Shown piece after piece: positions 5,478 to 27,721 of a DNA stretch of 64,000 nucleotides. Every line of letters starts with the position of its first letter. Position 1 is the stretch's first letter. The stretch spans positions 32,001 to 96,000 of the IMG/VR virus record IMGVR_UViG_3300037067_013742. One strand, given 5' to 3'. The notes below the pieces were generated by a model, which was given only the letters and a program-made list of their open reading frames with translations, was not told the DNA's origin and searched no databases. The translations under genes were made by a program, and so were the position numbers. Origin of the DNA: a virus. Its lineage: Duplodnaviria > Caudoviricetes.

Positions 5478-6116
5478 CTATATCCTCGGCGTCAGCGAGA
5501 GCATTCGCGTGAGCCGTGTGTTAGCGCGCTCGAGCGCGGCGTCCCACGCGGCGGCCCACGCGGCGTCCATCGCGGCGTCCCTCGCGGCGTCCATCGCGGC
5601 GTCCCACGCGGCGTCCATCGCGGCGTCCCACGCGGCGGCCCTCGCGGCGTCCCTCGCGGCGTCCCACGCGGCGTCCATCGTGGCGGCCCTCGCGGCGTCC
5701 CACGCGGCGTCCCACGTGGCGACCCTCGCGGCGTCCCTGATGGACTCGTCTCCGGTGCGGAGGAATCGCACGACGACCTCGGGCGGATCGGGCCACAGGG
5801 GCAGCACGTCGAGCGCGCAAAGCCTAGCGAAGTGACGCAGCGTGGCCTCTGCGTCCACCGCCCATAGCACGGTGCGCTCCGAGCAGACGATCTTATCGTC
5901 GCCCCGCACGATCTCGCCGCCGCACTCGACGCGGCAGGCGATGTTGCCCTGAGCGTAGGAAAGCGCGTCGATGGCGCGGACTGAGGCGTGGAGGCCGCTG
6001 AAGCACATCTTCAGCTTGCCTTCGTGTCGGATCGTTTCGCCGATGGTGACCACCAGGCGGCCCTTGTTGGTGAGGATGCGGTCGCCATCCTTGATGCAGA
6101 AATGCCAAGCTCTCAT
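5478..6116 (-). CDS. phage protein with (W/R/M)DAA tetrapeptide repeats
   Basis: CFSGLHAS motif and C-terminal DAAW/DAAR/DAAM repeats; GC-rich. Confidence 0.8.
   Translation of the reverse strand: MRAWHFCIKDGDRILTNKGRLVVTIGETIRHEGKLKMCFSGLHASVRAIDALSYAQGNIACRVECGGEIVRGDDKIVCSERTVLWAVDAEATLRHFARLCALDVLPLWPDPPEVVVRFLRTGDESIRDAARVATWDAAWDAARAATMDAAWDAARDAARAAAWDAAMDAAWDAAMDAARDAAMDAAWAAAWDAALERANTRLTRMLSLTPRI
5535..5737. repeat. 12-bp coding tandem repeat (CGCGGCGTCCCA and variants), about 17 units
   Basis: Directly visible; encodes the xDAA repeats. Confidence 0.9.
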
Positions 6117-12896: not shown

Positions 12897-13350
12897 GAGA
12901 AAGGGTGACTTCCATCTGTGCTAATGACCCAGATTTACTCGCTATAAGCGCCGTAACAGGTCTCCAACTACACTCCTATAGCGAGTTTCTCCTAGGATTC
13001 AAGCCTTACCTAGGATGGCTGGGCTGCTTAGTAGGAATCGAACCTACCTCTACGTCATCTCACCAGAATACGATAAGCAGCTTTGAGCAGAGTGTGGTAT
13101 CAGGTTCCAGGAGTTCTATTGCAATAAAGGTTACTCCCGGATTACCGAGTCCATGCCCTTGGACTCACCTGTTTGTCTTCTGCATGGGTGAATCACCAGT
13201 CTTCGGCGGGCTATCACCATTACCAGCATCAGACTAGCTATACCACTAGCTAACTACCCCATGGCGCCTTAGCGAGGTAGATTCATTTGGTGAGGGCTAC
13301 TCCTAGACTAAGTCTAGCTGCACCCAGATTAGGTGTTGCTTCGCCCTCAA
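12897..13350 (-). ncRNA. structured non-coding RNA cluster with tRNA-like elements
   Basis: Gap of about 500 nt in the minus-strand gene tiling, filled with nested stems, a potential pseudoknot and two CCA-ended units. Confidence 0.65.
13020..13081 (-). ncRNA. anticodon-less tRNA-like RNA
   Basis: GCTGCTTA/TAAGCAGC + CCA, D-like loop with GG, GTAGG-TTCGATT-CCTAC T arm, no anticodon arm. Confidence 0.7.
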
Positions 13351-13366
13351 AGACTTTCGAAAGAAC

Positions 13367-13693
13367 TCACGTCCACTGAAGAGGCACCGGCTTACCCTTC
13401 TTTCCGTAGCGATCGGTCGTCTGCTGCGATCCCCCCGAGAAGGGCTGATAGCCACCTGTCCTGACCTCCACGTCCACTCCCGCTGCGTTCTTCACCTTGG
13501 TGGTGGTGACGGGCTTGTAGACCGGATCGAGGGCCACTGGGCGCTTCCCCAGTTCACGAGTGATGGCCTGGTGGAGCTGAGGGCAGAGCTTCTTGTCTGT
13601 CCTGTCCAGAACGGCCTGGAGCTCGTCGTTGTTCAGGGTGGCGATGTGGGCGACACGTCCGGTCGGAAGGGTCACGGTCTTGTTGCTCTTCAT
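13367..13693 (-). CDS. hypothetical protein (GC-rich codons)
   Basis: AGGAG RBS, codon bias. Confidence 0.7.
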   Translation of the reverse strand: MKSNKTVTLPTGRVAHIATLNNDELQAVLDRTDKKLCPQLHQAITRELGKRPVALDPVYKPVTTTKVKNAAGVDVEVRTGGYQPFSGGSQQTTDRYGKKGKPVPLQWT

Positions 13694-13706
13694 GTTGTTC
13701 TCCTGT

Positions 13707-14018
13707 CTAGTTGAGGTCAGAACTCTCGTTCTCCATGTCTCGGGCCATTCGGATGACTTCTTCGAGCTGAGCGGCGAAAGAAATCAGAACTAGCCCTGCC
13801 GCTGCCAGGAGGGCTCTCTGATCTACCGAGAAGAGCTTCTGCTCGACGGCCATGTCGGTCTCGACCAGGTGCGTGATGCTTCTGGCGGTCTGCTTTACCT
13901 CGGCCAGGAGAAGGGCTACCGGCTCCGTTACGACCTTTGCGTCTTCTTCTCTACTCATCGTCTTCCTCCCATCGACACGGACACTGTGCGTTGTCGCACC
14001 GTTGCTTTGGACACTCAC
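13707..14018 (-). CDS. hypothetical protein
   Basis: Tiled ORF; start uncertain. Confidence 0.55.
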   Translation of the reverse strand: MSVQSNGATTHSVRVDGRKTMSREEDAKVVTEPVALLLAEVKQTARSITHLVETDMAVEQKLFSVDQRALLAAAGLVLISFAAQLEEVIRMARDMENESSDLN

Positions 14019-14101
14019 ACTGATCGAGCTCTTCTCCGCAGTTCGTACAGTACCGAGGGGGAAGCTCGTCGCATCCTACTTCTTCCCAGAGAGATTCGTC
14101 C

Positions 14102-14299
14102 CTAGGCATTCTCACCTCCTACCATTACGATAGGAGTCATCGTGACGTCGCTCTGGGGCATTGTGTGGCCGCGAAAGAGACGGAGGTTCTGAACTGGCCT
14201 GTAGAGCTCCACATGAGCATCGAACCGGCGATTGACGATCATCGCATTGCCGCGGGCGAACTCACCGATTCTCTTCTGGAACATCTCGCTGATGGTCAT
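14102..14299 (-). CDS. hypothetical protein
   Basis: AGGAGG RBS. Confidence 0.6.
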   Translation of the reverse strand: MTISEMFQKRIGEFARGNAMIVNRRFDAHVELYRPVQNLRLFRGHTMPQSDVTMTPIVMVGGENA

Positions 14300-14343
14300 G
14301 TTAGAACCTCCTGAGTTATACGGTCACTTGTTCTCGAAGAAAC

Positions 14344-14685
14344 TTATTCTGCCGGAACCTCCGAGTCGTTCAGGGAATGATAAAGACGATCCCTCAGCAA
14401 ATCTCTCAGAGTGATCTTTCCGTTGGAGCAGTCGTAGCACCGACCTCTGCTGTAGGGGCCGACGTACTCTCCCGTTCCGTGGCACTTGGGGCAGACCTCC
14501 ACGGCGATGCTCTTGGGGTCTTCGATGACCACCGAGAAGTTCTCGTCCGCCCTGACGCAGACGTACTTTCCCAGGAGCTCCGTGGGCGGCTCACCCACCA
14601 GGCGATTCTGCTTCAGGAACTCGCCGACTCTCATCTGCCACCTTGCCAGGTTGAACTTGGTCACGAGCGTTCTCTCTACCTTCAT
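14344..14685 (-). CDS. protein with DnaJ-type zinc finger
   Basis: GGAGG RBS; CPKCHGTG...CYDCSNG. Confidence 0.7.
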   Translation of the reverse strand: MKVERTLVTKFNLARWQMRVGEFLKQNRLVGEPPTELLGKYVCVRADENFSVVIEDPKSIAVEVCPKCHGTGEYVGPYSRGRCYDCSNGKITLRDLLRDRLYHSLNDSEVPAE

Positions 14686-14778
14686 GTTTGACTACCTCCA
14701 TTGAAGTTAGAAAGAATTTATGGGTGGGTTCTTTTGAACGAAGTGGTTGGCGGGCAACACACTATTCTGCTGATAAGA

Positions 14779-14991
14779 CTACTTCCTAGGATCCCAATTA
14801 GCAGGAGCTTCGGGGATATTGGCTTTAGGATGGTCATACCAGCAATTAGTTCTTGGCTTGAGTGATACGCCGGCAGGAGAGAAATGATGTGAGGCTTCAG
14901 TTCGAGGGATGTCTGACTGGAGAGACGCGAGGAGAATTGGATTAGCTTCGGGAGTGCGATAGATTCCCGTCCACCACTTACCTGGATACAT
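14779..14991 (-). CDS. hypothetical protein
   Basis: GGAGG RBS within the upstream gene. Confidence 0.5.
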   Translation of the reverse strand: MYPGKWWTGIYRTPEANPILLASLQSDIPRTEASHHFSPAGVSLKPRTNCWYDHPKANIPEAPANWDPRK

Positions 14992-15205
14992 TCTCTACCC
15001 TCCTAAGTCTTTTTCTACACCAGTAAAGTGTTTTGGTCTTCTCGAAGCCTGACTTGGTTGTCTTTACGAGAGCCGTCTGCTCTTCGTTATTTACGGAGAT
15101 GACTGTATAACCCACAAGTTCAGTTTTGTGGACATACTCTCCGGGGAGAATTTCGATAGTCTTGAGTCTTTCGATCTCTCTTCTTGTTTCTTCGGCTCGA
15201 GACAT
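14978..15205 (-). CDS. hypothetical protein
   Basis: AGGAG RBS directly after the tRNA-like CCA. Confidence 0.6.
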   Translation of the reverse strand: MSRAEETRREIERLKTIEILPGEYVHKTELVGYTVISVNNEEQTALVKTTKSGFEKTKTLYWCRKRLRRVENVSR

Positions 15206-15214
15206 TGTTTCTCC

Positions 15215-15294
15215 TGGTGCCCGGTAAGGGACTTGAACCCTTATGTAACCAGTTACCTTTTCTACCGTTTATAGGACGGAGAGGATACCCGGGC
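15215..15294 (-). tRNA. atypical tRNA-like RNA, TAT (Ile) anticodon, no canonical D arm
   Basis: GCCCGG/CCGGGC + ACCA, TAAGGG-TTCAAGT-CCCTTA T arm, CCGT-CCTATAA-ACGG arm, GTAACTGGTTAC segment between anticodon and T arms. Confidence 0.65.
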
Positions 15295-15420
15295 GTTTAT
15301 TCTTACGGTCCGAGAGAACATCATTTAGGTTTAGCCGCTTTTGAGACCCTGGCGGCGCATCATTACCTCCATGTGGTTATCTCTTTATTTCTTATACACT
15401 ATATCTAAAAGAAATTCATT

Positions 15421-16005
15421 TTAGAAGGGGCATGTGTCTTCCCGCCAGTTTGAGAAGTTGTGGCAGGAGTTGCAGGCTTCCTCGTTTGAGCCGGGATCAC
15501 AGTTGCTGCAAGATCGGATGGGAGACTCTTCCTCTCTGGGCAGAGCGGCTTCCAGAATGAGCGCTAGGGCCTGAGTAACCCGACCCTCATGGATGTGAAG
15601 GATGAGACTCTTCGCCAGCTCTCGATCGATCAGAGGGGCCTTTACGGGGGACTGATAACGTGCGTTGTCCCTCAGCTCCGCGTTCTCCCTTTCGAAGTTG
15701 CCCAGGTCTCTGGTGAGACGAGATTTAGTCTCTTCCAGGTCTTTGATATACCTCTCTCGAGCGGTTGCCTCTACGTTGGCCTCGTTCAGATTTTGCTGGA
15801 GGCTGTCGACCTTGGTTTCGAGCTCTGCCCTGTCGGGGCCGTACATCTCTGCTCGGATCTTCTCCAGGGCCTTGGTGTAGGCTGGGATATCTCCATCCCT
15901 CAAGGCGAAGACGAGGTCGTTCCCATCCTTCAGTCCGCAGTTGGTCAGTTCGCGGATCATCTTGATGGTAGAGATGGGCTGAAGGATTTTGATCTCACTG
16001 GTCAT
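15421..16005 (-). CDS. ribosomal L7/L12 CTD-like domain + coiled coil + zinc ribbon
   Basis: IKMIRELTNCGLKDGNDLV; C-terminal CSNC...CNSC; paralog of 20230..20817. Confidence 0.7.
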   Translation of the reverse strand: MTSEIKILQPISTIKMIRELTNCGLKDGNDLVFALRDGDIPAYTKALEKIRAEMYGPDRAELETKVDSLQQNLNEANVEATARERYIKDLEETKSRLTRDLGNFERENAELRDNARYQSPVKAPLIDRELAKSLILHIHEGRVTQALALILEAALPREEESPIRSCSNCDPGSNEEACNSCHNFSNWREDTCPF

Positions 16006-16041
16006 TGGAATCTCCTACTTGGTGAGGTCGATCCCCCTCAG

Positions 16042-16188
16042 TCAGTTGTCCGTGATGTCCTCGCCCTCCTCCACTGAGGGGTTGTTGACTTCGATGTTGT
16101 AGTCATACTCGGTGGTGTCGTACCACTCCTCCTCGTCGAACTCCCTCTCGTGGATGGTCTCGAAGATCTCGTCCTGCTCATCCGTCAT
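16042..16188 (-). CDS. very acidic 48-aa protein (not in ORF track)
   Basis: MTDEQDEIFETIHEREFDEEEWYDTTEYDYNIEVNNPSVEEGEDITDN; AAGGTAGG leader; GC-rich codons. Confidence 0.65.
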   Translation of the reverse strand: MTDEQDEIFETIHEREFDEEEWYDTTEYDYNIEVNNPSVEEGEDITDN

Positions 16189-16220
16189 GTGAACCTACCT
16201 TTCTCTTGATTTAGGAGAAA

Positions 16221-16430
16221 CTACTCGTTATCGAGTTCTACGGTTTCTTCTTCTTGGCACTTGCGGAGGGAGATGCTTCTTGCCGCGCCACAAGACCAAC
16301 GACACTTCTTCAGTCGTCCTTTTGTGGGACAAGATTCATCAACCCAGTTGCATATCTCTATGAAGGGACATCCTACTCCCGCGGGGATATTTCCATCTAT
16401 TAGGGAATTAGAATTCAAATGATCTTTCAT
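16221..16430 (-). CDS. small Cys-rich protein
   Basis: AGGTAGG leader; six Cys. Confidence 0.5.
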   Translation of the reverse strand: MKDHLNSNSLIDGNIPAGVGCPFIEICNWVDESCPTKGRLKKCRWSCGAARSISLRKCQEEETVELDNE

Positions 16431-16956
16431 CTACCTACCTCTTACCAGAGTGATAGTAACAGAAGGATTTCTCTGGGAGGTTTGCATCGAGCAATCGACT
16501 ATCCCCAGGAGATAGAGGACCGCGAAGATGGCTATGATGATGCCGAGAGTTTCAGTGACGCTTCTCATTTGGTGGCCTCTTTGAGTTCTACGGTCTTTCG
16601 GGCGAGACACTCATTACAGCAATAACCAGAGTGCGTTACTTCTCCTCCCATCGGCCAACAGAAAGACTTCCAACATATCTGACAAGTAAACCAAAGAGCT
16701 TTCAAGGTTTTGTTATTGTTAGACATTACACAGGAAGTAGTAAGAACTTATTCTCTTCAGTGAAGACTTGAGGCTTTTATAGAGAAAGGCTGATTGTTAT
16801 AAAGATAGATCGAAGAACCAGTCTTTATGATTATCTTATCGCGCGCCTTTTGGTAGCGCGCTCGAAGGCCAAGCGAAGCGTTAGGCTGAAGAGCAAGCTC
16901 CAAAGGCAAGCGATAGAAGCAGTCTTTCAGTCATTCTCTACAATAAATCCTTTCTA

Positions 16957-16986
16957 TATATAGGGAGTTTCAAAACATCGTGTCAA
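16957..16986 (-). promoter_or_regulatory. sigma70-type promoter
   Basis: Minus strand TTGACA-18 nt-TATATA in an intergenic gap. Confidence 0.55.
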
Positions 16987-17081
16987 GTAGATTAGGGTGA
17001 GAAACGGATTGTCGCTGTTTGCGCTTGTATCGCCGTTATGTCTTCCGGCTTTTTATTGCGTCATAGGTAAAAGTCTATCAG

Positions 17082-17441
17082 CTAGATAGATCCTTGCTGT
17101 CTGGCCTTCTGTTTCCAGGCCATATAGCGGTCGGTAGGATTCGTTGGCTCCTCTTCTACTTGTTGAGATGGGAGCTTTGGCTTGGCGATGGTGGTCCTTT
17201 CTGCAAGAAGCTTTCTTACTTCTAGAGAGAGGCGTTTTTGTACATCTGGCGGGAGAACGATTCTAACTCTACTGTCTGTCTCATGGGGAATTGCTAGGAA
17301 AACCCCATACTTCCCCCTCACTATCTTGAGCCCGCGAATCACAATGTCTCCACTGCGGATAGCCACCTGTCCTAGAGACTTCTCTCCATAAGAAAACCAC
17401 TCGATCTCGATGATTTTGGTAGAATTGGTTACTTCGTTCAT
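17082..17441 (-). CDS. SpoVG-like nucleic-acid-binding protein
   Basis: IVIRGLKIVRGKYGVFLAIP matches the SpoVG core; start reset to the Met 6 nt after TGcTATACT. Confidence 0.7.
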   Translation of the reverse strand: MNEVTNSTKIIEIEWFSYGEKSLGQVAIRSGDIVIRGLKIVRGKYGVFLAIPHETDSRVRIVLPPDVQKRLSLEVRKLLAERTTIAKPKLPSQQVEEEPTNPTDRYMAWKQKARQQGSI

Positions 17442-17651
17442 TTGCCCAGTATAGCAACTCCCCTGGCTATTTGTATTACCGTCGCTACCAGGAGCGACAG
17501 GGCCAAGTCTAGCATAAATGCGGCAGAAGACACACACCCCATTGAGCATATGGGTAGACGGATGGATATCCTCACAGATTTGGCAGATGCTCATTTCTTC
17601 TAGCTCCACGACTACAGCATACTCCAAAAAGTAGCTATCTAGATAAAGAAG

Positions 17652-17853
17652 AATAGGCAGAACCTCACCCCGTGGCCTTTGGGGGAAGCTCTGCCTATTG
17701 GTTTTGATTTTGATCCTGTATTTAGCTACGCCCAGGTCAGGCGCTAGATTTGGTCTCGCATCTCCAATTACTCCTACACACGGGTTACATGTTGGGGTGT
17801 AATTGCTTCTGCTCTACGTGGGTCTTTTGCCGGCCGGCTAACCCTTCTGCCAC
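17652..17853 (-). ncRNA. structured intergenic element ending in a terminator-like long hairpin
   Basis: CAATTAC/GTAATTG and GCGCCTG/TGGGCGT stems, then AATAGGCAGA/TCTGCCTATT followed by CTTCTTT. Confidence 0.45.
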
Positions 17854-17887
17854 TTGAATTAGAAAAAACTCTGAGTTCTACGGTGTC

Positions 17888-18127
17888 TTATCCCAGCGCC
17901 TCCAGAATCCATCGAGCTCTTGCTGAGTGAACCGTCACGAGCCCGTTGTTCATCTGCTCGTCAGAACAGGTGATGAGCTTGAGATCGTAGAGCTCTTGGA
18001 TGAAGATCCTAATCTTCTCAACTGCTGCGGGGTACATCTTCGTGGTCAGATCGAACTCCAGGTCTCCCCCGAAAACCTCAGCCTCTTCTTCGTAGCGGGC
18101 CAACACCTTGAGCATTTCCTTGAGCAT
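17888..18127 (-). CDS. hypothetical protein
   Basis: TAATG coupling with the upstream gene. Confidence 0.65.
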   Translation of the reverse strand: MLKEMLKVLARYEEEAEVFGGDLEFDLTTKMYPAAVEKIRIFIQELYDLKLITCSDEQMNNGLVTVHSARARWILEALG

Positions 18128-18339
18128 TACATTCCTCCCATCTCGTCGATGGTCTCGTCTACCAGTTTGCTGATGTATCTGAGGGCGATCTTGTCGCCGG
18201 GCTTGATTGAATCGATATCCATTCTATCCAGCGTGATCTGGATTGTGGTTAGGAGGAGCGCATAGTGTGTCAGGTCACTCCTCTTGATGGTGTAGCTATC
18301 GAGTCTATCGGACTCAACAACATCTCTTGGTCGGGTCAT
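18127..18339 (-). CDS. hypothetical protein
   Basis: AGGAGATTCCA-ATG leader. Confidence 0.65.
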   Translation of the reverse strand: MTRPRDVVESDRLDSYTIKRSDLTHYALLLTTIQITLDRMDIDSIKPGDKIALRYISKLVDETIDEMGGM

Positions 18340-18348
18340 TGGAATCTC

Positions 18349-18879
18349 CTATAGTTGGGCGACTACTTCCTGTACAGGAACGTTCATTTCCCGAGAGATT
18401 GAGAGAACTGTCATCATATCCTCGGTTCCCATCGGCTGATCACATAGGTAGGTGAGCTCCTCCTCTGTTGCCCCCATTGCCAGGAGGGAGATTCCCTTGA
18501 CCCTTGATCCTCCGATGAGCAGGGGAGCCGTCATCGTGAGGAGCATTGGGTTCCCTTCGGTGACCTTCATCAGCTGATCGATCAGGCCCTCGGGAGTGCC
18601 CTTCTGAACGACCTGACTCCAGAGGTGGCAGGCCGTAACGAGGGGCAGCATCTCCTCCCTGCTCCCTTCGAACCAGGTGGTGTCGATGCAAGCCAGAACC
18701 TGTGTCACGGTCTTGATCTGGATGTTCTCACCGACCTCGAAGATGTTGGCGACTCGGCCACCGTAGCCCAGCTCGTACTTCACCAGGCTGTTGAGAGCGT
18801 CCTGAATGCTCTTGTTGTGGCGGGGAGGCACATCACGATGAAGTTCTCCGTTGAATCTTTCGCCCCATACGCTGATCAT
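18349..18879 (-). CDS. hypothetical protein
   Basis: AGGAGATTCCA-ATG leader, GC-rich codons. Confidence 0.75.
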   Translation of the reverse strand: MISVWGERFNGELHRDVPPRHNKSIQDALNSLVKYELGYGGRVANIFEVGENIQIKTVTQVLACIDTTWFEGSREEMLPLVTACHLWSQVVQKGTPEGLIDQLMKVTEGNPMLLTMTAPLLIGGSRVKGISLLAMGATEEELTYLCDQPMGTEDMMTVLSISREMNVPVQEVVAQL

Positions 18880-18953
18880 TGGAATCTCCTTTATCGCTGA
18901 GTATTAGTAGAAACTTAGGTAGGTAGATAGGTTGGTAGTATAGGAGGGATAGT

Positions 18954-19217
18954 TCAGTTGACTCGGTGGGCGAGACCCTGCTCGTCGAATCTCCACTGAT
19001 GTGTGGATCCCTGGTTGTATCTCAGGATGTTCTCCGCGGCAGAGGCAGACCATACCCAAGTACAGGCTCTACGAACATGGAGAACTGCCGTGATTACGCG
19101 GCGACGTTCCTTTGCATATCCCTCGACTGCTGCTCTCTCTGTTTCCGCTGCGAACTGATGAACGTACATTGCGGAAGGGCCACGGCCATTTCGTCCCCAG
19201 ATTTCGTAGAGGTGCAT
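18954..19217 (-). CDS. hypothetical protein
   Basis: GGAGG RBS before MHLYEIWG. Confidence 0.55.
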   Translation of the reverse strand: MHLYEIWGRNGRGPSAMYVHQFAAETERAAVEGYAKERRRVITAVLHVRRACTWVWSASAAENILRYNQGSTHQWRFDEQGLAHRVN

Positions 19218-19251
19218 GTCAGTTCCTCCATTCGTAGCTGTTAGAAGAAAT

Positions 19252-19722
19252 TCAGGAGAGGTATTTCGCTCGGAAAGCAACCCACTCATCCCTGTTGTAG
19301 AGGTTGTAGACTGGGATGCCTGCTGCGTTGGCTGCTCGGATAGCGTATCCAGTCCCCCCGTGGTCTTTTCCATTTGAGGTCCAGCATACAACGAACTCAA
19401 TGGGCTTATTGCCATCTCTACCGAAGAGCTGTTGCATATTGCGAGCGAGGAGAGCCTGTACGTAGGGCCTCATCTTCTCGAGCTTTGCTCCCTTCTGGAG
19501 GTAATCCTTCACCTTCTCATAGCACCACTGAGGCACGTTCTTGGCGTAGAAGATCTCCTTCAGTCCTCCGGCGGCACCCTGTTCGAAGGCAGTGTCGGCT
19601 CCTTTAGCGCCACCACTTCGAAGGGTATATCCTTTCTTAGCGAGGTGAGTAGCAATCCTCTTCATGAGATTGAGGACTACCTCTGGTGTCTCTCTTGAAC
19701 CAATCCCGGCGTAATGAGGCAT
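19252..19722 (-). CDS. SLOG/DprA-like nucleotide-binding protein
   Basis: YAGIGSRETP, LRSGGAKGAD, GGTGYAIRAA...IPVYNL. Confidence 0.85.
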   Translation of the reverse strand: MPHYAGIGSRETPEVVLNLMKRIATHLAKKGYTLRSGGAKGADTAFEQGAAGGLKEIFYAKNVPQWCYEKVKDYLQKGAKLEKMRPYVQALLARNMQQLFGRDGNKPIEFVVCWTSNGKDHGGTGYAIRAANAAGIPVYNLYNRDEWVAFRAKYLS

Positions 19723-19731
19723 TACTTCCTC

Positions 19732-20172
19732 CTAGAGAACTACGATCATCCCGTTCTCTTCTCTAAGGTTATTGGCTTTGAGAGCTTTCTTCCATGGACG
19801 TTGGGAGGGACAACAATACATATAGAGCTTTGATCTCAGGATGTTGTCGCCCTTGAAGCTCTTATTGAGAACTTCTCGTACTGCTGTTCTTAGTTCGGCG
19901 GCAGATCCGGTAAAGGGCTCTGTAGTCAGTACAGTAGAGAGGGCCTTGGTTACCTCCTTTGAAGCATCCATATAGTAGGGAAGCTTGTTTTGGCGGGAGA
20001 TCTCTCCTACTGTAGAAGCAGAACGAAGTCTTGGCTTCTCAGGTTCTTTTTCTGCGGGCAATACAACTATATCTCTCTGAGAAGTAGAAGTTCTAAGAGC
20101 ATTGGCCATAGCATCCAGTACTGTGGCCATCCCCTCTCCTTCACCATCAATCTGAATAGTAACTTTTGGCAA
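19732..20172 (-). CDS. hypothetical protein
   Basis: GGAGG upstream of TTG start. Confidence 0.6.
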   Translation of the reverse strand: MPKVTIQIDGEGEGMATVLDAMANALRTSTSQRDIVVLPAEKEPEKPRLRSASTVGEISRQNKLPYYMDASKEVTKALSTVLTTEPFTGSAAELRTAVREVLNKSFKGDNILRSKLYMYCCPSQRPWKKALKANNLREENGMIVVL

Positions 20173-20229
20173 GGGAATTATATCCTCCTATAAGGACTAT
20201 AAGAGGAATTTCTAGGTAGGTAGGTTAGG

Positions 20230-20817
20230 CTACTTGTCCTCTTCCCATCTGTCGAAGTTGTCACAATCACAGCAAGGCCACTCGCTCTTGTCTTCGGCCG
20301 GGGCGTGGAGACAGTTGTAGCAGCTGTGGTTGCTGGACTTCTTCTGATCAGCCAGGAGATCAACGAGGATGTCGACGACTCGGGTGGTCTCGTGCTCCAC
20401 CAGTGCGTAGATGGCTCGCCGAACCTCCGGCTTCCAGGAGTCGTCCTGCTGCATCCCGTTGATGTCTCGGAGGAGGGAGGTGACGGTGTCCTCAGACTCC
20501 TTGAGGCGGTCCCTGAGGTTCTCGACGATGACCTTGGTTTGGGACAGCTCATAGGAGAGGCTGGAGTTCTTCTTCTCCAGCTCGGTGGTCTGCTTGCTCA
20601 GCTCCTTCTCGGGGACGCTCCTCTGGGCCGAGACGACCTCCAGGTCCTCCAGGCGGTTCCTGAAGTTGCGGGCCCAGGTCACGGGTGCCTCGGTCTCTGA
20701 GCTCGTGGGGTACTGCTCGACCAGCTCCTTGGCCTCCTTCAGTCCCAGACCGGTCAGCTGCCTGACCAATTTGATCATGGGTACTTTGACTCCGTTGCCC
20801 CAGTTGATCTCGTCCAT
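20230..20817 (-). CDS. ribosomal L7/L12 CTD-like domain + coiled coil + zinc ribbon
   Basis: KVPMIKLVRQLTGLGLKEAKELVE closely matches the bL12 CTD signature; C-terminal CYNC...CCDC. Confidence 0.8.
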   Translation of the reverse strand: MDEINWGNGVKVPMIKLVRQLTGLGLKEAKELVEQYPTSSETEAPVTWARNFRNRLEDLEVVSAQRSVPEKELSKQTTELEKKNSSLSYELSQTKVIVENLRDRLKESEDTVTSLLRDINGMQQDDSWKPEVRRAIYALVEHETTRVVDILVDLLADQKKSSNHSCYNCLHAPAEDKSEWPCCDCDNFDRWEEDK

Positions 20818-20850
20818 CGTTATCTCCCTTGTAAGTAGTAGAAGAAACTA

Positions 20851-21321
20851 CTAGTAGTAGCGCCTGAAGCCCTTGAAGGCGAACGTGGCCACCTTCTTGG
20901 TGTTCCCGTCGTCCTGGAGGGTCTCGGTCACCACCCTCTCCGAAACGGCCGCCACCACTCCATCCACCCAGGTGTCGTAGCTCTGGAGGAGGTTGACGAT
21001 CTGGAAGGTGAGGGTCATCTCGCCCTGCACCATGATGGTGATGGGGCCATCGTACTTTTGGGGGAACCTCTCCAGCTCGGCGATCACATCCCAGGCCATC
21101 TGGATGACGTCGTCTTTGGTGGCCTCGGCGGGGACGTTGGGGAAGGCGACATCCACGATCATGGCGGTGGAGTCGTCAGTGGCGTAGGTCTTGGCGGCCT
21201 CCAGCTGCTCCTTGGACCACTTGGAGGAGGGGTGGTTGGAGACGTTGATGAACAGGGGGCAATCCGCCCTGAGGAAGTTCTCAACCTGTTTTCCGACGAA
21301 CATCTCATGGTCACAACACAT
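20851..21321 (-). CDS. Csx20-like CRISPR-associated Rossmann-fold protein, candidate ring nuclease
   Basis: FINVSNHPS..W..EQ, FPNVP, VQGEMTL, SER..E, KK...F.F..FRRY. Confidence 0.6.
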   Translation of the reverse strand: MCCDHEMFVGKQVENFLRADCPLFINVSNHPSSKWSKEQLEAAKTYATDDSTAMIVDVAFPNVPAEATKDDVIQMAWDVIAELERFPQKYDGPITIMVQGEMTLTFQIVNLLQSYDTWVDGVVAAVSERVVTETLQDDGNTKKVATFAFKGFRRYY

Positions 21322-21370
21322 CTAATCCTCCAATCACGGTAAGTAGTAAGAACTCATAGCAAGAAGAGGT

Positions 21371-21583
21371 TTAGGCCAAGTCTTCCTTTGCGGCCAGATC
21401 CTCCAGTTGTTTGGCCTGGTCGGCGGCAGACATGAGAGCAACGGCAAGATCCCATGCTTCATTGGTAGTCAGATCGAGAGGAATCAGAACTCCATCCCTC
21501 TTGATGTCACAGAGGACATCCGGTCCGTCTCCCCACGTACAAGCAACAGTAATCTCGTCTGCTCGAGTTCGGATAATGGTCAT
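21371..21583 (-). CDS. hypothetical protein
   Basis: AGGAG RBS. Confidence 0.6.
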   Translation of the reverse strand: MTIIRTRADEITVACTWGDGPDVLCDIKRDGVLIPLDLTTNEAWDLAVALMSAADQAKQLEDLAAKEDLA

Positions 21584-21629
21584 CTGTATCTCCTGGTGAA
21601 CGTTAGAGGAATTCTATGGTAGGAAAGGA

Positions 21630-21655
21630 GGGCAGTTTACACTCATGCCCAGGAG
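21630..21655 (-). ncRNA. small H-type pseudoknot motif, copy 1
   Basis: CTC-CT-GGGCA-T-GAG-TGTAAAC-TGCCC, 8 nt after a stop codon. Confidence 0.65.
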
Positions 21656-21663
21656 CTTAGATC

Positions 21664-22023
21664 TTAGAGGGCCTTCCTGCACTTCTCAAATGGGCATCCA
21701 CCATTACAGTGCTTGTCGTAGAGAGCCCAGTCGATCTGTGGCAAGAAGTCTTCTGTGAGGAGGTAGTCGAAGAACTCTGGGCCGAGGTTGTCCACCATCA
21801 CCTCTATAATTTTGTGGGGTAGGTGGTCTTGGAGGATATCTCCTTCGTGCATGTCGGTGAAGTGAGCTTGGATGACGACTGGCTTGACGTGGTTTTCCCA
21901 GGTGCAGGTTGGGGCGCAACGAATGGGGGTGAGGTTTACCTCCACGATGTCTCCGCGAGGGTTCTTTCCCAACCGGCGAGACCATGTCCCCCAATAGGAG
22001 GAGAAGAAGTACGTGTTTTTCAT
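21664..22023 (-). CDS. hypothetical phage protein
   Basis: MKNTYFFSSYWGTWSR start; the longer ORF-track version shadows the upstream gene. Confidence 0.65.
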   Translation of the reverse strand: MKNTYFFSSYWGTWSRRLGKNPRGDIVEVNLTPIRCAPTCTWENHVKPVVIQAHFTDMHEGDILQDHLPHKIIEVMVDNLGPEFFDYLLTEDFLPQIDWALYDKHCNGGCPFEKCRKAL

Positions 22024-22040
22024 GGAGGATTTAGAAGAAA

Positions 22041-23603
22041 CTAGATGCGGACGAGCGAGGCCAGCATGGCGTTTAGGCTTGTCCATCCCTCGATGTAGGG
22101 CGCGGGGGTGAGGCTGATGGGCGCGTACCCGGTGGTCTTGACCACGCCCTGGCAGAGAACCTCGATGGTCCTCTTCGGCAGGACCGGGACCTCCTGGCTG
22201 TCGGAGGTGGTGACGAGGGCGGAGGGGCAGCGGGCCAGGGGGCCGACGAACCACTCCAGGTAGGAGGTGCGGGGCTTGAAGGACCCCTGGAACTCGCTGA
22301 TGGACATCCCCAGGACCCTGGCGTGCAGCTCGATCGCCACACCCTCTCCCATGCCGTCGCAGGCGGGGCAGGTCATCCCGTTGGGGAGGGTTCCCTGGCT
22401 GTCGCAGTAGGGGCACAGGACCTTCTCCTCCACGCTCTCCGTGGCCAGGAAGTCACCCTGCATCGCGGAGTGCTCCCAGATGTCTCCCTCGGCGGAGGGG
22501 GCCTTGGGGTAGGTACCGATGGCCTTGACCTTTAGGGAGCGGTGGATGTTCTGGGCCAACCACTCGGTCAGCTTGCTGGCGAAGGTCTTGGCCCTCTGCT
22601 CGTCCTTGGAGTCACCCACCACGTAGGTGAGCTTGCCCAGGCGCGAGGACCAGTCGACCTCGGGGGAGTGGATTCCCGCGGCCCTGATGGTGGCGGCGTT
22701 GAGGGCCAGGACGTACCGGGCGTAGTCCAGACCGAAGTGGCGGTACCCCTCGGGCAGGGCGGTGATGGTCTCCGAGAGTCCGTCCCGGGCCTTCATGTGG
22801 GTGTACCACCGACCCGTGTTGTGGGCGATAGCGACGGCGGACAGGTACCCGGCCTCACCGATAAGCTTGACGAGGTTCTGGACGCTCTTGGCCGTCTGGA
22901 TGCGGGAGAGCAGCTCGTCCAGGCAGACGTCCCTGAGCTCCGAGACGCGCTCCAGGTGGAGGCGGTTGGGCTCGTAGGACATCTCGGCCTTGCGACCGGC
23001 CAGCTCGTCCTCCTCGGTGAGGGGGAGGGAGCGGGCGATGTTGGCGCTGGCGGAGAACTGGGCGTCCCACCAGTCACCGTCCATCTCGGCCCCGAAGACC
23101 ACGCTCTCGTCGTCGTCGTCCCCGGAGGTGGGGGCGTCCATGAGGGCGCAGTCGTCGTACAGGCACAACTCGGCGGCACCTTGTCCCGGGGCGAGGTCGA
23201 CGGTCGGGTCCAGCCTGTCTCCGGCGCCGGGGCACCAGCCGAAGGTCTTCCGGTCGGCGTGGAAGGTCAGGGTCTCGATCACCACCTGGATGATCTCCCT
23301 GCACCGGATGGTCTCGGCCAGGACGTGGATGTCCTTGGCGTTGAGGTTCACCGAGAGCATGCTGTAGGCCTCCAGGGCGAGGTCGTGGGCCTTGAAGGTC
23401 GACACGGCCTCCATCTCCTGGATCGAGGTGAGGGTGCCGCGCAACCAGGCGTTGAGGAGCGGGAAGGTGTTGGGGACGGGGGCGAGCTCGATCTCGGGGA
23501 TGAACTCGTTGTCCTCGGAGCACAGCGTGTCGAGGTAGTTCTCGAACTGCTCGTCGGTGGCGAAGGTGTCGTTGACGTTCATGGTGGAGGTGTTGGTCGT
23601 CAT
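22041..23603 (-). CDS. large GC-rich acidic protein with DnaJ-type zinc finger
   Basis: AGAAAGG RBS before MTTNTSTM; CPYCDSQG...CPACDGMG; nearly all third positions G/C. Confidence 0.8.
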   Translation of the reverse strand: MTTNTSTMNVNDTFATDEQFENYLDTLCSEDNEFIPEIELAPVPNTFPLLNAWLRGTLTSIQEMEAVSTFKAHDLALEAYSMLSVNLNAKDIHVLAETIRCREIIQVVIETLTFHADRKTFGWCPGAGDRLDPTVDLAPGQGAAELCLYDDCALMDAPTSGDDDDESVVFGAEMDGDWWDAQFSASANIARSLPLTEEDELAGRKAEMSYEPNRLHLERVSELRDVCLDELLSRIQTAKSVQNLVKLIGEAGYLSAVAIAHNTGRWYTHMKARDGLSETITALPEGYRHFGLDYARYVLALNAATIRAAGIHSPEVDWSSRLGKLTYVVGDSKDEQRAKTFASKLTEWLAQNIHRSLKVKAIGTYPKAPSAEGDIWEHSAMQGDFLATESVEEKVLCPYCDSQGTLPNGMTCPACDGMGEGVAIELHARVLGMSISEFQGSFKPRTSYLEWFVGPLARCPSALVTTSDSQEVPVLPKRTIEVLCQGVVKTTGYAPISLTPAPYIEGWTSLNAMLASLVRI

Positions 23604-24416
23604 GTGAGAACCTTTCTGCTGGCGCTCGGCCAGCTGTGATTGGGACTCGGGAGGTGGTGCAAGCTGGGTCATCGAAGAAGGGACGAAGTCCCTGACCCAG
23701 CGCAGTCACCACCGTGTCCCCAGACTGTCTGTGCCATGCTTAGGTCGAGGCAGGCACACAACCTCGCTCCACGATTCTGATTGCTGGGCGCTTGCATCCC
23801 AGTCTGCCGTTTCGCGGGCAGATCCACCTCTACCTATGGTAGTAGGACAATCACTAATCGTTGAAGTAAAGGAAACTCATCGGGGGCTTTTTCTTTTAGG
23901 CGGGCGAACTGACAGGAATCTCAATCTGATAAGACTTCCTGTCTTAGAGCTATAGGAAAAGTATTAGTACGAGCAGTAGTATAAAATCTTACAGGTGGAG
24001 ATAGGGAGTATATATAAGGATATTAGATCATAAGAGAGTATACAGAGCGGGCACGAATTTGACCCGCCAGGGGCAAATGGAGTGCCGCTGAGGCGAGCGT
24101 TAGCAAGCCGGTGAGGCGACGTATTGATTATGATATTTAAGCTTTAGGAAGAGCACGAGGCCCCAAAGCCGAGTGCGTGCGTATGATATCTATTCTTGGC
24201 GGGGGAACAACAATCATAGCCTAGACTATTATCATTAGAGAGTATTAGTGCGTTATCAAGGTTAATAGCCAAGAATTATCAGTAGATATTCTTCTAGCGG
24301 GCAACAACAACTAATAGCCTTATCAACCTCTGGTAAGAATATCAGTAGAGTGCGTTATAGAGGGAAGAAGGAGAGAAAGCCAGCAACCAAGAGCGTGCGT
24401 GCGTAGAGAAAAGAAT

Positions 24417-24443
24417 GAGCAGTTTTCAGTCAATGCTCAGGAC
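24417..24443 (-). ncRNA. small H-type pseudoknot motif, copy 2
   Basis: GTC-CT-GAGCA-TT-GAC-TGAAAAC-TGCTC, 10 nt after a stop codon. Confidence 0.65.
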
Positions 24444-24453
24444 CTGATCAGAA

Positions 24454-24657
24454 CTACTCCTCCAGCTTCCACTCCCTGGTCTTCTCTTCCCAGATGTAGG
24501 TGTAGTACATCTGGGCCACCTCGTGCAGCACCTGGACGGTGAACATGACGTTCTCCCCGTCGTCCTCCTCCAGGATGTCCATCACGACGTACCCACCCTT
24601 GGTCTCGAAGTGGTCGAAGATCTCCTTGGTGGTCGGCATCCCGAACTGGTTCGTCAT
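24454..24657 (-). CDS. small acidic protein
   Basis: GAGG RBS before MTNQFG; GC-rich codons. Confidence 0.65.
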   Translation of the reverse strand: MTNQFGMPTTKEIFDHFETKGGYVVMDILEEDDGENVMFTVQVLHEVAQMYYTYIWEEKTREWKLEE

Positions 24658-24762
24658 AATAGCCTCTAACACTCGATATAAGCCCTCGAGTAGGGGGTTA
24701 ACGACCCGGCTCCTTGGTAAGGGAATCGCACCCTCTGTAATGCCGCCTAGGGCCCAAGGAAC

Positions 24763-24788
24763 GAGCAGTTTATCCTGTTGCTCAGCAG
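24763..24788 (-). ncRNA. small H-type pseudoknot motif, copy 3
   Basis: CTG-CT-GAGCA-A-CAG-GATAAAC-TGCTC, 7 nt after a stop codon. Confidence 0.65.
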
Positions 24789-24795
24789 CCAAGAA

Positions 24796-25209
24796 CTAGT
24801 CGCAGCTCTGACTGCAGTTCCAGGTTGTCGCCGGCTTCCCGGACGTTGCGCTGATCACATGGGAGAACTGCCAAAAGCCGTAGCCACAGGCATTGTGGTG
24901 GCAACGATCTTGGATCTGGAGAGCCCGGTCCTTGCTGATATGACCCTCAGTGCAGAACTGAACGTCGCGACCACTGTCGTCTACCCAGACCCCGTCCTCG
25001 AGCTTCCTCCAGTTTCCCGTGTCCTCGATCGCCAAGCTCTGCTGCTTCGGGTTCTTCAGCGCGGCCAACACCTCCTCAGGGCTATTTCCCGATGAGTAGA
25101 CCATCTTGTAAAACTTCGTGCTTGTCATGCCAGCAACCATAGCAATCGCTTCCGCACAGATCTCCTTGTTCGACCTTGCCATATCAAACCTCATTTGCCA
25201 GATGCTCAT
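24796..25209 (-). CDS. hypothetical protein; C-terminal domain paralogous to 26778..26999
   Basis: VWxDxSGRxVxFCxxGHI...GYGFxxFSH...SGKPATTWxCSxxCD; true start may be MARSNK. Confidence 0.75.
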   Translation of the reverse strand: MSIWQMRFDMARSNKEICAEAIAMVAGMTSTKFYKMVYSSGNSPEEVLAALKNPKQQSLAIEDTGNWRKLEDGVWVDDSGRDVQFCTEGHISKDRALQIQDRCHHNACGYGFWQFSHVISATSGKPATTWNCSQSCD

Positions 25210-25271
25210 CAGTGCAGGACTACTGGCTATACCTGCAGACTCCCTATGAGAGGGAGTTTCGCTTAAGGGGT

Positions 25272-25919
25272 TTACTTCTCGGGGAGGATGATGGCGTGGT
25301 AGGAAAGACTCTCAGCCTTCTCGGCGAGAATCTTCTTGAGGAGGTGGCGGTGACAGAATGCGCCCTTCCTGCAGTAGCAGGTAAGGACAATCACTCTGCC
25401 TTCCAGAGCGGCCTTGGTGATGATGGTTTCCCATCTGTGCTGGTGTTTGGTCCAGCTCTCCTCCATCATCTTGAGGTAGAGTTTGGTGTACTGCTCCTTG
25501 GACATCGCGCCGCCCAAGTAGCCTTCCACCATCCGCCAGGTCGGGGCGAACATCTGGAGTCCGCTCTTAACCGTGACGTTGATCACCAGCTCATCGGAGG
25601 TGGGCTTGTGGGAGATATGGGCGGTGGTAATCCGCACGGTCCCATAGTTATGGCGGGGCGACTCCCTGGACCATCCGGGCTGATCCAGGTTGTCGTACTT
25701 CTCAGACTTCTTGGCCTGCGCCATAATCTCATCCGAGAAGGGAGTCCCGTCTAGCTCTGGATACCGCTCCTCTTGCGGCTGTCCAGAGGAAGCGATCCGG
25801 ACCCACTCGCGAGCAGTAAGTTCGGAAGCCTTGACCTTGGTCCAGAACTCTGTGCTGTTCCGAACCAATTTCAGATCGATCGCCTGCCTACAGTAGTAGG
25901 CGTTGTTCTCGGTCGCCAC
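25272..25919 (-). CDS. DUF488-like domain protein
   Basis: FAPTW...Y...Y...IVLTCYC....FCHRHLL. Confidence 0.75.
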   Translation of the reverse strand: MATENNAYYCRQAIDLKLVRNSTEFWTKVKASELTAREWVRIASSGQPQEERYPELDGTPFSDEIMAQAKKSEKYDNLDQPGWSRESPRHNYGTVRITTAHISHKPTSDELVINVTVKSGLQMFAPTWRMVEGYLGGAMSKEQYTKLYLKMMEESWTKHQHRWETIITKAALEGRVIVLTCYCRKGAFCHRHLLKKILAEKAESLSYHAIILPEK

Positions 25920-26296
25920 TAGAACCTCCTCGTGTTGGCGTTCAAGGCCGCAACCATCTCCTCCTCTGAGAAGTGGTTGTAGTTCAACTCAACGTCGAAC
26001 TCATCCCACTCCCCGAGCTCTTCCTCGACCATGTCAGGGATAGTCAGAGCGACCAGGAGCTTGATCTCCAGGTCAGAGATCTCTTCCTGGTTCTCCAGCT
26101 TCTCCCACCAGTAGGGGCCGAGGGAGCTCTCGACGCGGGGGAGCTTGACCGTCCTTTCCAAGACGGTATCTCCCCAGCAATCAATCGCCTCCTCCCTGTT
26201 CTGCCACCAACGGACCAAGTAGGTGCCGATGTAGCAGAGGGCGAGGGTGGCGGCGATCACGAACAGCATCTCAACTACGATCTGCAGAGTGGTCAT
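25919..26296 (-). CDS. membrane-anchored acidic protein
   Basis: N-terminal TM helix, AAAGGA RBS. Confidence 0.7.
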   Translation of the reverse strand: MTTLQIVVEMLFVIAATLALCYIGTYLVRWWQNREEAIDCWGDTVLERTVKLPRVESSLGPYWWEKLENQEEISDLEIKLLVALTIPDMVEEELGEWDEFDVELNYNHFSEEEMVAALNANTRRF

Positions 26297-26428
26297 ATAA
26301 GACCATCCTTTCTAGGGGATTGGCTACCCCATAATCTACCTTGAGCGCCCGACACACTTCTATGTCAGGCCCTGCGGTAGCCCTCTTTTTGTCCTTAGAC
26401 AGGGCGAGGAGTTAGTTCCCTGAGAGAT

Positions 26429-26635
26429 CTAGTGGTTGGGGTACATGAACGAGGAGACGATGGCCCCGTAGGCGAGGGACTTGCCCTCCTCCCACGGAGC
26501 CGACTCCTCGATCTTGAGAACGAACTTGTCGCTGTTGCCGCCGCACATCTCAACGATCTCGCCGAGAAGACCGACATCCAGGAGATCGGCATTGAGGAGG
26601 GAGAGCGAACCGTGGATCGAGTTGTACTTGGTCAT
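26429..26635 (-). CDS. hypothetical protein
   Basis: GAAAGG RBS, GC-rich codons. Confidence 0.65.
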   Translation of the reverse strand: MTKYNSIHGSLSLLNADLLDVGLLGEIVEMCGGNSDKFVLKIEESAPWEEGKSLAYGAIVSSFMYPNH

Positions 26636-26738
26636 GTTAGACCCTTTCTTTCGGGGGACTGGTTACCCCATCAGATACCTCTACTTTGGCCTACTATAGG
26701 CTGGGGCCTAGGTTTTCGCACCCCATTATCCGTAGCTT

Positions 26739-26764
26739 GAGCAGTTTAATGTCTTGCTCAGGAC
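26739..26764 (-). ncRNA. small H-type pseudoknot motif, copy 4
   Basis: GTC-CT-GAGCA-A-GAC-ATTAAAC-TGCTC, 13 nt after a stop codon. Confidence 0.65.
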
Positions 26765-26777
26765 GTTGGGGACGCTA

Positions 26778-26999
26778 TCAGTCGCAGTTGGCGCTGCAGC
26801 ACCAGGTGGTCGCCGGCTTTCCGGACTTGTTGCTTGCCGTGTGGGAGAACTCGTAGAAGCCGTAACCGAACGCGCTGTAGTGGCAGTTATCCTGAACCTG
26901 CCTTGCCTCCTCCTCGGTAATGTGGCCCAGAACACAGAACCTCACGTTACGTCCGCTGGTGTCGATCCAGACCTTCTCGCCGATTTGATTCCATGCCAT
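26778..26999 (-). CDS. hypothetical protein, stand-alone paralog of the 24796 domain
   Basis: GAGG RBS before MAWNQIG; shared motifs. Confidence 0.75.
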   Translation of the reverse strand: MAWNQIGEKVWIDTSGRNVRFCVLGHITEEEARQVQDNCHYSAFGYGFYEFSHTASNKSGKPATTWCCSANCD

Positions 27000-27721
27000 G
27001 ATAAGACCTCTTCTTCTACGTAGAGCAGTACTACTACGGCACCATGCCATAGCAGCACATACCCTGTCCGTTGGGCCTGCCTGCGGGTATCGCGCCCACC
27101 TACCCCTAAGGGTGATCACTATGATCAGGCAGACTGATGTAGTACAGCATACTGTATAGGCCCCTGCTGTAGGGGGCACATGTAGGACTATAGTAGTACT
27201 AGTGTACACATAGACATACACTCATGTACTACCTGATGCATGGATAGATGTACTACCCATGTAAGCCTGCTTAGTGCAGGTACAGCATGACTACATGATT
27301 TAGGGATTATGTCCTATGCATATATGTACGCAGATGTAGCATATGGCACATGTACATGTAGCTGCTGTGATGCTGGTCATTCAACTTGTGCTTGTTGTAC
27401 TACTACTAGTAGTTAAACATAAGCGCATCCAACACTATAACTAAGGTAGTTATAGGCGAGATCATAGCTCATAGTACTGTTTCATTTATGCGCGCATCCC
27501 TTTCGACATCACGCATAAAGGCTTAGTACTAGTATTGCTTAGATCCAGTAGCGCATGTTCAGGTAGCTACTAGACTCAGATAAGCCAGTTTCTTATCTGA
27601 CAAGCACTCCAGACTGTTATTCACAAGTCTGGTGGTTAACCGCAACCAGAGCTACCGGAGATCAACCCGGGGGCTCCGAACGTGGCAACCATCCTGAGGA
27701 AAATCCCCAAGATACACGTCC

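Follow-up and report, generated by a model that had tools for sequence, protein, structure and literature searches.

A divergent Csx20 family protein of an uncultured jumbo phage is a candidate ring nuclease acting against type III CRISPR signalling

The window analysed here is a 64,000-nucleotide stretch of viral DNA comprising bases 32001-96000 of a 229,064-bp IMG/VR virus record. At its centre of interest lies a short minus-strand gene encoding a 156-residue protein, referred to as P0001, which is accompanied by a Shine-Dalgarno sequence, an orphan gene, a short RNA-like element and two slots whose content differs in a related phage, represented by a 3.4-kb contig (L028; JGI 3300029288). 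These features are as follows.

20851-21321, minus strand: csx20-like gene, 156 aa (P0001), called from its open reading frame, Csx20 profiles, invariant residues and an AlphaFold2 model
21326-21331, minus strand: Shine-Dalgarno sequence GGAGGA, seen in the sequence itself, 4 nt before the ATG (21321)
21371-21583, minus strand: orphan 70-aa gene directly upstream of csx20, syntenic in L028
21630-21652, minus strand: short covarying element bordering the 70-aa/csx20 unit on its upstream side, found at the same place in L028 (1386-1408)
21664-22023, minus strand: 119-aa gene, absent from L028, that fills another variable slot on the upstream side of the 70-aa/csx20 unit
20230-20817, minus strand: 195-aa bL12-CTD-like/coiled-coil/Cys-rich gene in a variable slot just downstream of csx20, recognised by comparison with L028

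The gene picked out by an earlier sequence-only reading proved to be a real 156-aa minus-strand frame preceded by a GGAGGA Shine-Dalgarno sequence, and its N-terminus is unchanged in the L028 copy, which is 95% identical at the amino-acid level. Two overlapping plus-strand ORFs (20993-21187 and 21058-21342) were treated as by-products of the GC3-rich minus-strand gene. The protein consists of a 22-residue N-terminal extension, modelled with low confidence, followed by the core Csx20 domain (residues 23-156). The motifs listed in that reading are all present, namely NHPSSKWSKEQ (29-39), FPNVP (60-64), VQGE (98-101), SERVVTE (127-133) and FAFKGFRRY (147-155); only the spacing given as SER..E had to be corrected to SER...E, with three residues in between.

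Profile searches placed P0001 in the Csx20 family. The PADLOC Csx20 model (PDLC01397) was matched along its entire length (profile positions 1-114 of 114) at E 2.3e-22, and the Csx20 end of the PADLOC CARF_HEPN_CSX20 fusion model matched at E 1.5e-15, while the mixed Csx15/20 model of the same collection gave a weaker match (E 6e-11, as against E 2e-22 for the Csx20 model). The NCBIfam model CAS_Csx20 (NF040559) recognised the protein at E 2e-8 with 34.6 bits, below the 70-bit equivalog cut-off of that model; P0001 is thus a Csx20 family member on a divergent branch and not an equivalog of the archaeal-type Csx20 underlying NF040559. An exhaustive HMMER search returned 1437 homologue representatives at E<=1e-3 and 327 at E<=1e-10, most of them stand-alone proteins of 115-140 aa that align from P0001 residue 23 onward. 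The precomputed annotation on these homologues is the newer Pfam family PF27247 ('MJ1673'), and the finding that P0001 matched no family at E<=1 in our local Pfam release is not evidence against membership, because that release predates PF27247. Among the PHROGs only sub-threshold matches were obtained.

[quoted passage not shown] All eight invariant residues (N26, H30, W35, Q39, G100, E101, R129 and F149) are kept, as are all twelve residues in columns conserved at 90% or more (F24, N29, A43, D57, F60, P61, E133, G139, K143, F147, F152 and R153). The motifs of P0001 are the Csx20 family consensus and no chance resemblance, and we regard it as nearly certain that the protein belongs to this family.

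The source of the gene is an uncultured jumbo tailed phage, because the 229-kb record carries large terminase, portal and major head genes, whose products are remote relatives (26-31% identity) of their counterparts in Bacillus phage 0305phi8-36, Moorella phage MTATph1 and Acinetobacter phage ME3. The record is rated 100% complete (CheckV; IMG/VR record), and its description as phage DNA from the letters alone was correct. Neither Cas10 nor a CRISPR array was found anywhere in the 229-kb record; the gene therefore stands alone, outside any type III CRISPR-Cas locus, in line with the claim of a stand-alone gene with no cas genes nearby, and the absence of such a locus beside csx20 is expected for a viral copy. 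From its position only, in a minus-strand arm of small genes that diverges from the structural module, we infer that csx20 lies in the early region. At the start of the plus-strand arm (29170-30771, plus strand), a single gene joins an HNH endonuclease domain to an IMPDH/GMPR-like dehydrogenase (phrog_19902 and phrog_9582).

Comparison with L028 revealed how the gene is embedded. Both phages share the order 543-aa gene, 70-aa gene, csx20 and then a 146-aa gene, and the flanks differ: the downstream slot, which in the window phage holds the 195-aa gene, is occupied in L028 by an AAA_33 kinase-like gene, and the 119-aa gene is placed between the 543-aa and 70-aa genes in the window phage. From this synteny with differing flanks, the 70-aa/csx20 pair appears to be a fixed unit between two variable slots. 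The 543-aa neighbour received no PDB or Pfam assignment. The 70-aa protein, for which homologues were sought among 5.8 billion proteins as a test for an anti-CRISPR-associated (Aca) regulator, had the L028 copy as its only homologue and showed no detectable HTH or RHH domain, only sub-threshold matches (HTH_PafC, E 0.04); with no detectable DNA-binding domain and a homologue in L028 only, the gene cannot be called an Aca.

Several other genes of the arm deserve mention. The 195-aa gene at 20230-20817 (minus strand) and a gene at 15421-16005 (minus strand) are paralogues (25% identity, E 4e-8), both combining an N-terminal segment that resembles the C-terminal domain of ribosomal bL12 (Pfam E 3e-11; PDB bL12 E 2e-5) with a coiled coil and a C-terminus rich in Cys. 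The gene at 19252-19722 (minus strand), two genes beyond csx20 on its downstream side, encodes a DprA-like/SLOG-type Rossmann protein of 156 aa (phrog_768, E 1e-41; its Pfam match to DNA_processg_A, E 9e-6, falls below the cut-off). A DUF488-N3a gene ('active DUF488-N3 subclade') occurs a few kb from csx20 both in the window (25272-25919, minus strand) and in L005 (5133-5810), the locus of the homologue P0013, which suggests that these two elements have more than csx20 in common.

The surroundings of csx20 raise the question of whether it was captured but takes no part in counter-defence, being either neutral or of internal use to the phage, for instance a nucleotide-binding regulator or a decaying passenger. 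There are no cas genes, no Aca was detected, the neighbouring genes are orphans, and the gene sits between two variable slots, all of which would suit such a role. Against it stand an intact frame, a strong Shine-Dalgarno sequence and the retention of every invariant family residue. Further, the csx20 copies of the two phages are 95% identical, dN/dS for csx20 is 0.35 (15 substitutions only) and both its dN and its dS are the lowest of the four shared genes, and members of the Csx20 family turn up on 8 or more further IMG/VR contigs. We therefore consider a neutral or purely internal role very improbable.

The element at the upstream edge of the unit consists of CTGRGCA, a further 6-7 nt and AAACTGCYC, and has two stems that covary. 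The 229-kb genome contains exactly four copies, each placed right behind a stop codon within the early arm; the other three are listed here.

24417-24440, minus strand: copy of the short covarying element
24763-24785, minus strand: copy of the short covarying element
26739-26761, minus strand: copy of the short covarying element

The element matched no Rfam family, and the minimum free energy of the local region was no better than that of shuffles. A distinct RNA in the same arm, at 25196-25264 (minus strand) between two early genes, is a type II hammerhead ribozyme (Rfam RF02276, 43.2 bits against a gathering threshold of 37, E 2.3e-6, full-length model). Scans for sigma-70 promoters and terminators did not exceed shuffles, and a repeat search around csx20 yielded nothing notable. 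The 10-mer TACTACTTAC, which flanks csx20 on both sides, was considered as a general promoter motif and rejected, with 5 matches in the window against 3.5 expected.

The gene was described from the letters as GC-rich, and this holds: its GC content is 0.60 and its GC3 is 0.90 versus a phage gene mean of 0.44 (sd 0.11), a z of 4.2 that ranks second among 303 ORFs. High GC3 is common to several other minus-strand genes at 13-27 kb, and the interspersed genes and spacers are without it, so that the region 13300-27300 (minus strand) forms a mosaic of genes with GC3 of 0.75-0.94 among AT-rich genes and spacers. Examples of genes with high GC3 are listed below.

20230-20817, minus strand: GC3-rich, the 195-aa gene
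20851-21321, minus strand: GC3-rich, csx20
22041-23672, minus strand: GC3-rich
24454-26296, minus strand: GC3-rich
5478-6116, minus strand: GC3-rich

The same mosaic pattern is kept in L028 and in the more distant L005. GC3 is 0.89 in the L028 copy of csx20 and 0.87 in the L005 copy (P0013, 56% identical), and in csx20 homologues on other viral contigs GC3 matches the surroundings. In our reading, the high GC3 has been maintained within a small csx20 clade and is not the scar of a very recent capture, because at 56% protein identity synonymous sites had ample time to drift. Its cause could be either that early genes have adapted their codons to a GC-rich host or that the genes stem from a common GC-rich donor pool.

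A phylogeny of the family (88 rows, 129 columns) was mostly unresolved, and the viral copies in it were scattered and clustered no more than shuffles. No donor can be named, because the nearest non-phage-like relatives of P0001 are at most 56% identical and the tree lacks resolution; that P0001 is a captured host off-switch is nevertheless plausible. P0001, its 95% twin and P0013 share an N-terminal extension bearing Cys/His residues and GC3 of 0.87-0.90 in AT-richer genomes, and in P0001 and the 95% twin the gene is joined by the orphan 70-aa partner preceded by the covarying RNA-like element. These traits could be taken to mean that the three form a distinct phage Csx20 subclade which, together with the 70-aa gene and the element, makes up a self-contained, specially regulated counter-defence cassette, an idea we offer as speculative and think unlikely to be right.

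Ten long homologues were retrieved with P0001 as query. In eight of them a Csx20 domain forms the C-terminal part of a Csx1/Csm6 (CARF-HEPN) protein, and another joins TIR to Csx20 (549 aa). The Csx1/Csm6-Csx20 fusions tie the family to cyclic-oligoadenylate signalling, and we take them to resemble the known self-limiting Csx1-Crn2 fusions. Tandem Csx20-Csx20 proteins of 293-304 aa and the 549-aa TIR-Csx20 protein are found among P0012, P0014 and P0040, and on a cellular contig (L006, 1-10882) a tandem Csx20-Csx20 gene adjoins Helicase_C, MZB, NERD/UvrD_C and Vsr genes. A CRISPR array lies within 10 kb of the homologue at 4 of 11 cellular loci (named MAGs) and was found at none of the 8 IMG/VR loci that carry a homologue. 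At six of the latter (L008, L009, L010, L011, L013 and L014) the immediate neighbours of csx20 matched no Pfam family, and the sole PHROG match among them was to a family of unknown function. On a metagenomic contig (L003, 1142-9072), the homologue P0008 comes after genes for a NUDIX/AAA protein of 1098 aa, a member of the Sequestin family (PF21825) and two MYG1_exonuc proteins; from its predicted content this group may represent a nucleotide-signal counter-defence cluster.

To characterise the fold, P0001 was modelled with AlphaFold2 from an alignment. The model (mean pLDDT 89.5, pTM 0.81) has an alternating order of strands and helices, an insert of roughly 7 residues after helix 1 and, in the 22-residue N-terminal extension, a pLDDT of only 52-63. 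The sequence-only reading had put forward a structural comparison with Csx20 and Crn1. Foldseek against the PDB returned nothing at E<=1e-3, the best match being 3TM-SAVED at 1.2e-3, and searches of PDB sequences with P0001 and with the family profile gave no match and no Csx20 structure. The VIA structure search, which is independent of Foldseek, placed the SAVED domain of Cap5 on top (Z 7.4-7.7, rmsd 3.0-3.2, 110-112 residues aligned), with further matches to SAVED-CHAT (Z 7.7), the CARF domain of Csm6 (Z 6.7), the viral SAVED ring nuclease 9r8s (Z 6.1-6.4) and the Crn1 ring nuclease Sso2081 (Z 5.5, rmsd 3.3, 107 aligned); Cap14, Cap4, Cad1, Csx1-Crn2, SSO1393, Cami1 and CalpL are also in the list. 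In a second VIA search, SAVED or CARF cyclic-oligonucleotide-binding domains made up about 36 of the 50 top entries. Overall these matches have Z of 5-7.7 and rmsd of about 3 Å over 100-117 aligned residues; as every structural Z is below 8, a range that can reflect a common arrangement, each match alone is weak and supports the fold class only. Taken at that level, the model supports a CARF/SAVED-like Rossmann domain, in keeping with the 5-stranded sheet and flanking helices that characterise the family, and the enrichment agrees with the derived CARF-like Rossmann fold published for Csx20 (PMC12409355). The proposal of a Csx20-like, small Rossmann/CARF-like protein is consequently borne out by the profile matches, the conserved residues, the predicted fold and the predicted dimer described below.

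The closest solved folds, the CBASS SAVED sensors Cap5, Cap4 and Cap14, invite the thought that P0001 degrades cA3 or other CBASS-type cyclic oligonucleotides and thereby serves in anti-CBASS or dual anti-defence. SAVED matches do not indicate the ligand, however, because SAVED and CARF share one fold. A TIR-Csx20 fusion exists, but Csx1/Csm6 proteins of type III systems predominate by far among the fusion partners. Likewise, although a cellular Csx20 degraded cA3, this happened only at high enzyme and was complete at 10 uM enzyme, whereas at 100-fold substrate excess Csx20 was cA4-specific (PMC12409355). A role directed at CBASS nucleotides is in our opinion unlikely.

We next consider the oligomeric state, for which the prediction of a P0001 homodimer gave an ipSAE of 0.64, whereas the highest-scoring of three controls stayed at 0.00. 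When the ipSAE mark was calibrated, 20 of 30 proteins with structures solved as pairs attained it, as did 1 of 23 solved as single chains; these counts hold only roughly here, as the dimer prediction used a custom alignment. At least 96% of contacts agreed between runs, and partner pLDDT was at least 81. The predicted interface comprises residues 65-73, 99-110, 124-128 and 150-156 and overlaps the QGE, SER and FRRY motifs, and an interface running through conserved motifs is what would be expected of a composite ligand site on a two-fold axis such as that of CARF proteins. Independently, single-chain proteins with two Csx20 domains in tandem occur in nature, and both halves of one of them (P0012) are 42% identical to P0001. 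Based on these models, P0001 most likely forms a homodimer with its conserved face at the two-fold axis.

What such a dimer might do can be approached through its characterised relatives. A cellular Csx20 fully degrades cA4 to small linear products and leaves cA6 uncut (PMC12409355). Csx20 has been found in 4 of 28,114 phage genomes of the Millard database (Hoikkala et al. 2025, PMC12409355), and csx20 homologues were reported from anti-defence operons/acr loci of mobile genetic elements under the RHH regulator Aca14, where csx20 was called a likely cas gene co-opted for counter-defence (2026 NAR paper, PMC13551039). The idea of phage Csx20 as type III counter-defence is thus already published (PMC12409355, PMC13551039). 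From the published cA4 cleavage by Csx20 (PMC12409355) together with the viral cas-less context, we hypothesize that P0001 is probably a ring nuclease that acts on cA4 as a dimer and that the phage produces to dampen type III CRISPR signalling. The two-fold face of the homodimer would bind cA4 through N26/N29-H30, W35, Q39, Q99-G100-E101, S127-E128-R129 and F152-R153, and the enzyme would cut it to linear A2>P in a metal-independent reaction, as a cellular Csx20 has been shown to do. Produced during infection, P0001 would remove the cA4 produced by host Cas10 and so keep the effectors (Csx1/Csm6, Can/Card, Cam1 and others) off, thereby acting as a type III anti-CRISPR. The family, the conserved residues, the fold class, the predicted dimer, the viral cas-less context and the conservation in a related phage were established here. 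From sequence and by analogy we infer cA4 binding and cleavage by P0001, its early expression and its effect on immunity; the conserved residues of P0001 do not by themselves establish that its active site is intact, as experiments have yet to assign catalytic residues in Csx20.

An alternative to turnover would be sequestration, in which P0001 binds cyclic oligoadenylate and holds it, or acts as a very slow nuclease in the manner of Csx15. Phage sponges are a common anti-defence strategy, and the homologue P0008 adjoins a Sequestin-family gene. Csx15, a CARF-like relative, sponges cA4 well and cleaves it only very slowly as a ring nuclease, but the same study argued that type III systems make too much cyclic oligoadenylate for sponging to work and that Csx15 is absent from phages (PMC13148439). 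P0001, moreover, is by its profile scores a Csx20 and not a Csx15, and cA4 is fully degraded by Csx20 in vitro (PMC12409355). We judge a sponge to be quite unlikely and retain the ring nuclease as the preferred reading.

Comparison with known systems delimits what P0001 would add. It shares with CRISPR-associated Csx20 (NF040559; PF27247) the sequence family, the motif series, the CARF-like Rossmann fold class and the predicted dimer, and differs in being phage-encoded without cas genes, divergent, and equipped with the 22-aa N-terminal extension and the insert of about 7 residues. As in the csx20-aca14 operons of Pasteurella multocida (PMC13551039), csx20 is carried by a mobile element, but unlike in those operons no RHH or HTH Aca was detected next to the P0001 gene. 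From both the csx20-aca14 genes and the four Millard phage Csx20, P0001 is set apart as a different lineage, in an uncultured jumbo phage, because tblastn against 50,697 cultured-phage records gave no match either with P0001 or with a more central member of the family (P0003). AcrIII-1/Crn2 (DUF1874) resembles the proposed role of P0001 in being a small dimeric viral enzyme that destroys cA4 against type III CRISPR, yet its fold and family are unrelated, and P0001 has no DUF1874 match (Pfam, E<=1). Crn1 (Sso2081) and AcrIII-2 (9r8s) have the CARF/SAVED-type fold in common with P0001, at the Z scores given above, and the ring-nuclease activity is theirs; they belong to different families with no detectable sequence similarity to P0001.

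Since no Csx20 was found in the PDB by sequence search, a well-behaved viral Csx20 could serve to obtain the first Csx20 structure and to compare viral with cellular kinetics. If active, P0001 extends the viral Csx20 ring nucleases to a jumbo-phage lineage and supports repeated phage co-option of CRISPR 'off-switch' enzymes of several unrelated folds, namely AcrIII-1/Crn2, AcrIII-2, Crn4b and Csx20, for the silencing of cyclic-oligoadenylate signalling.
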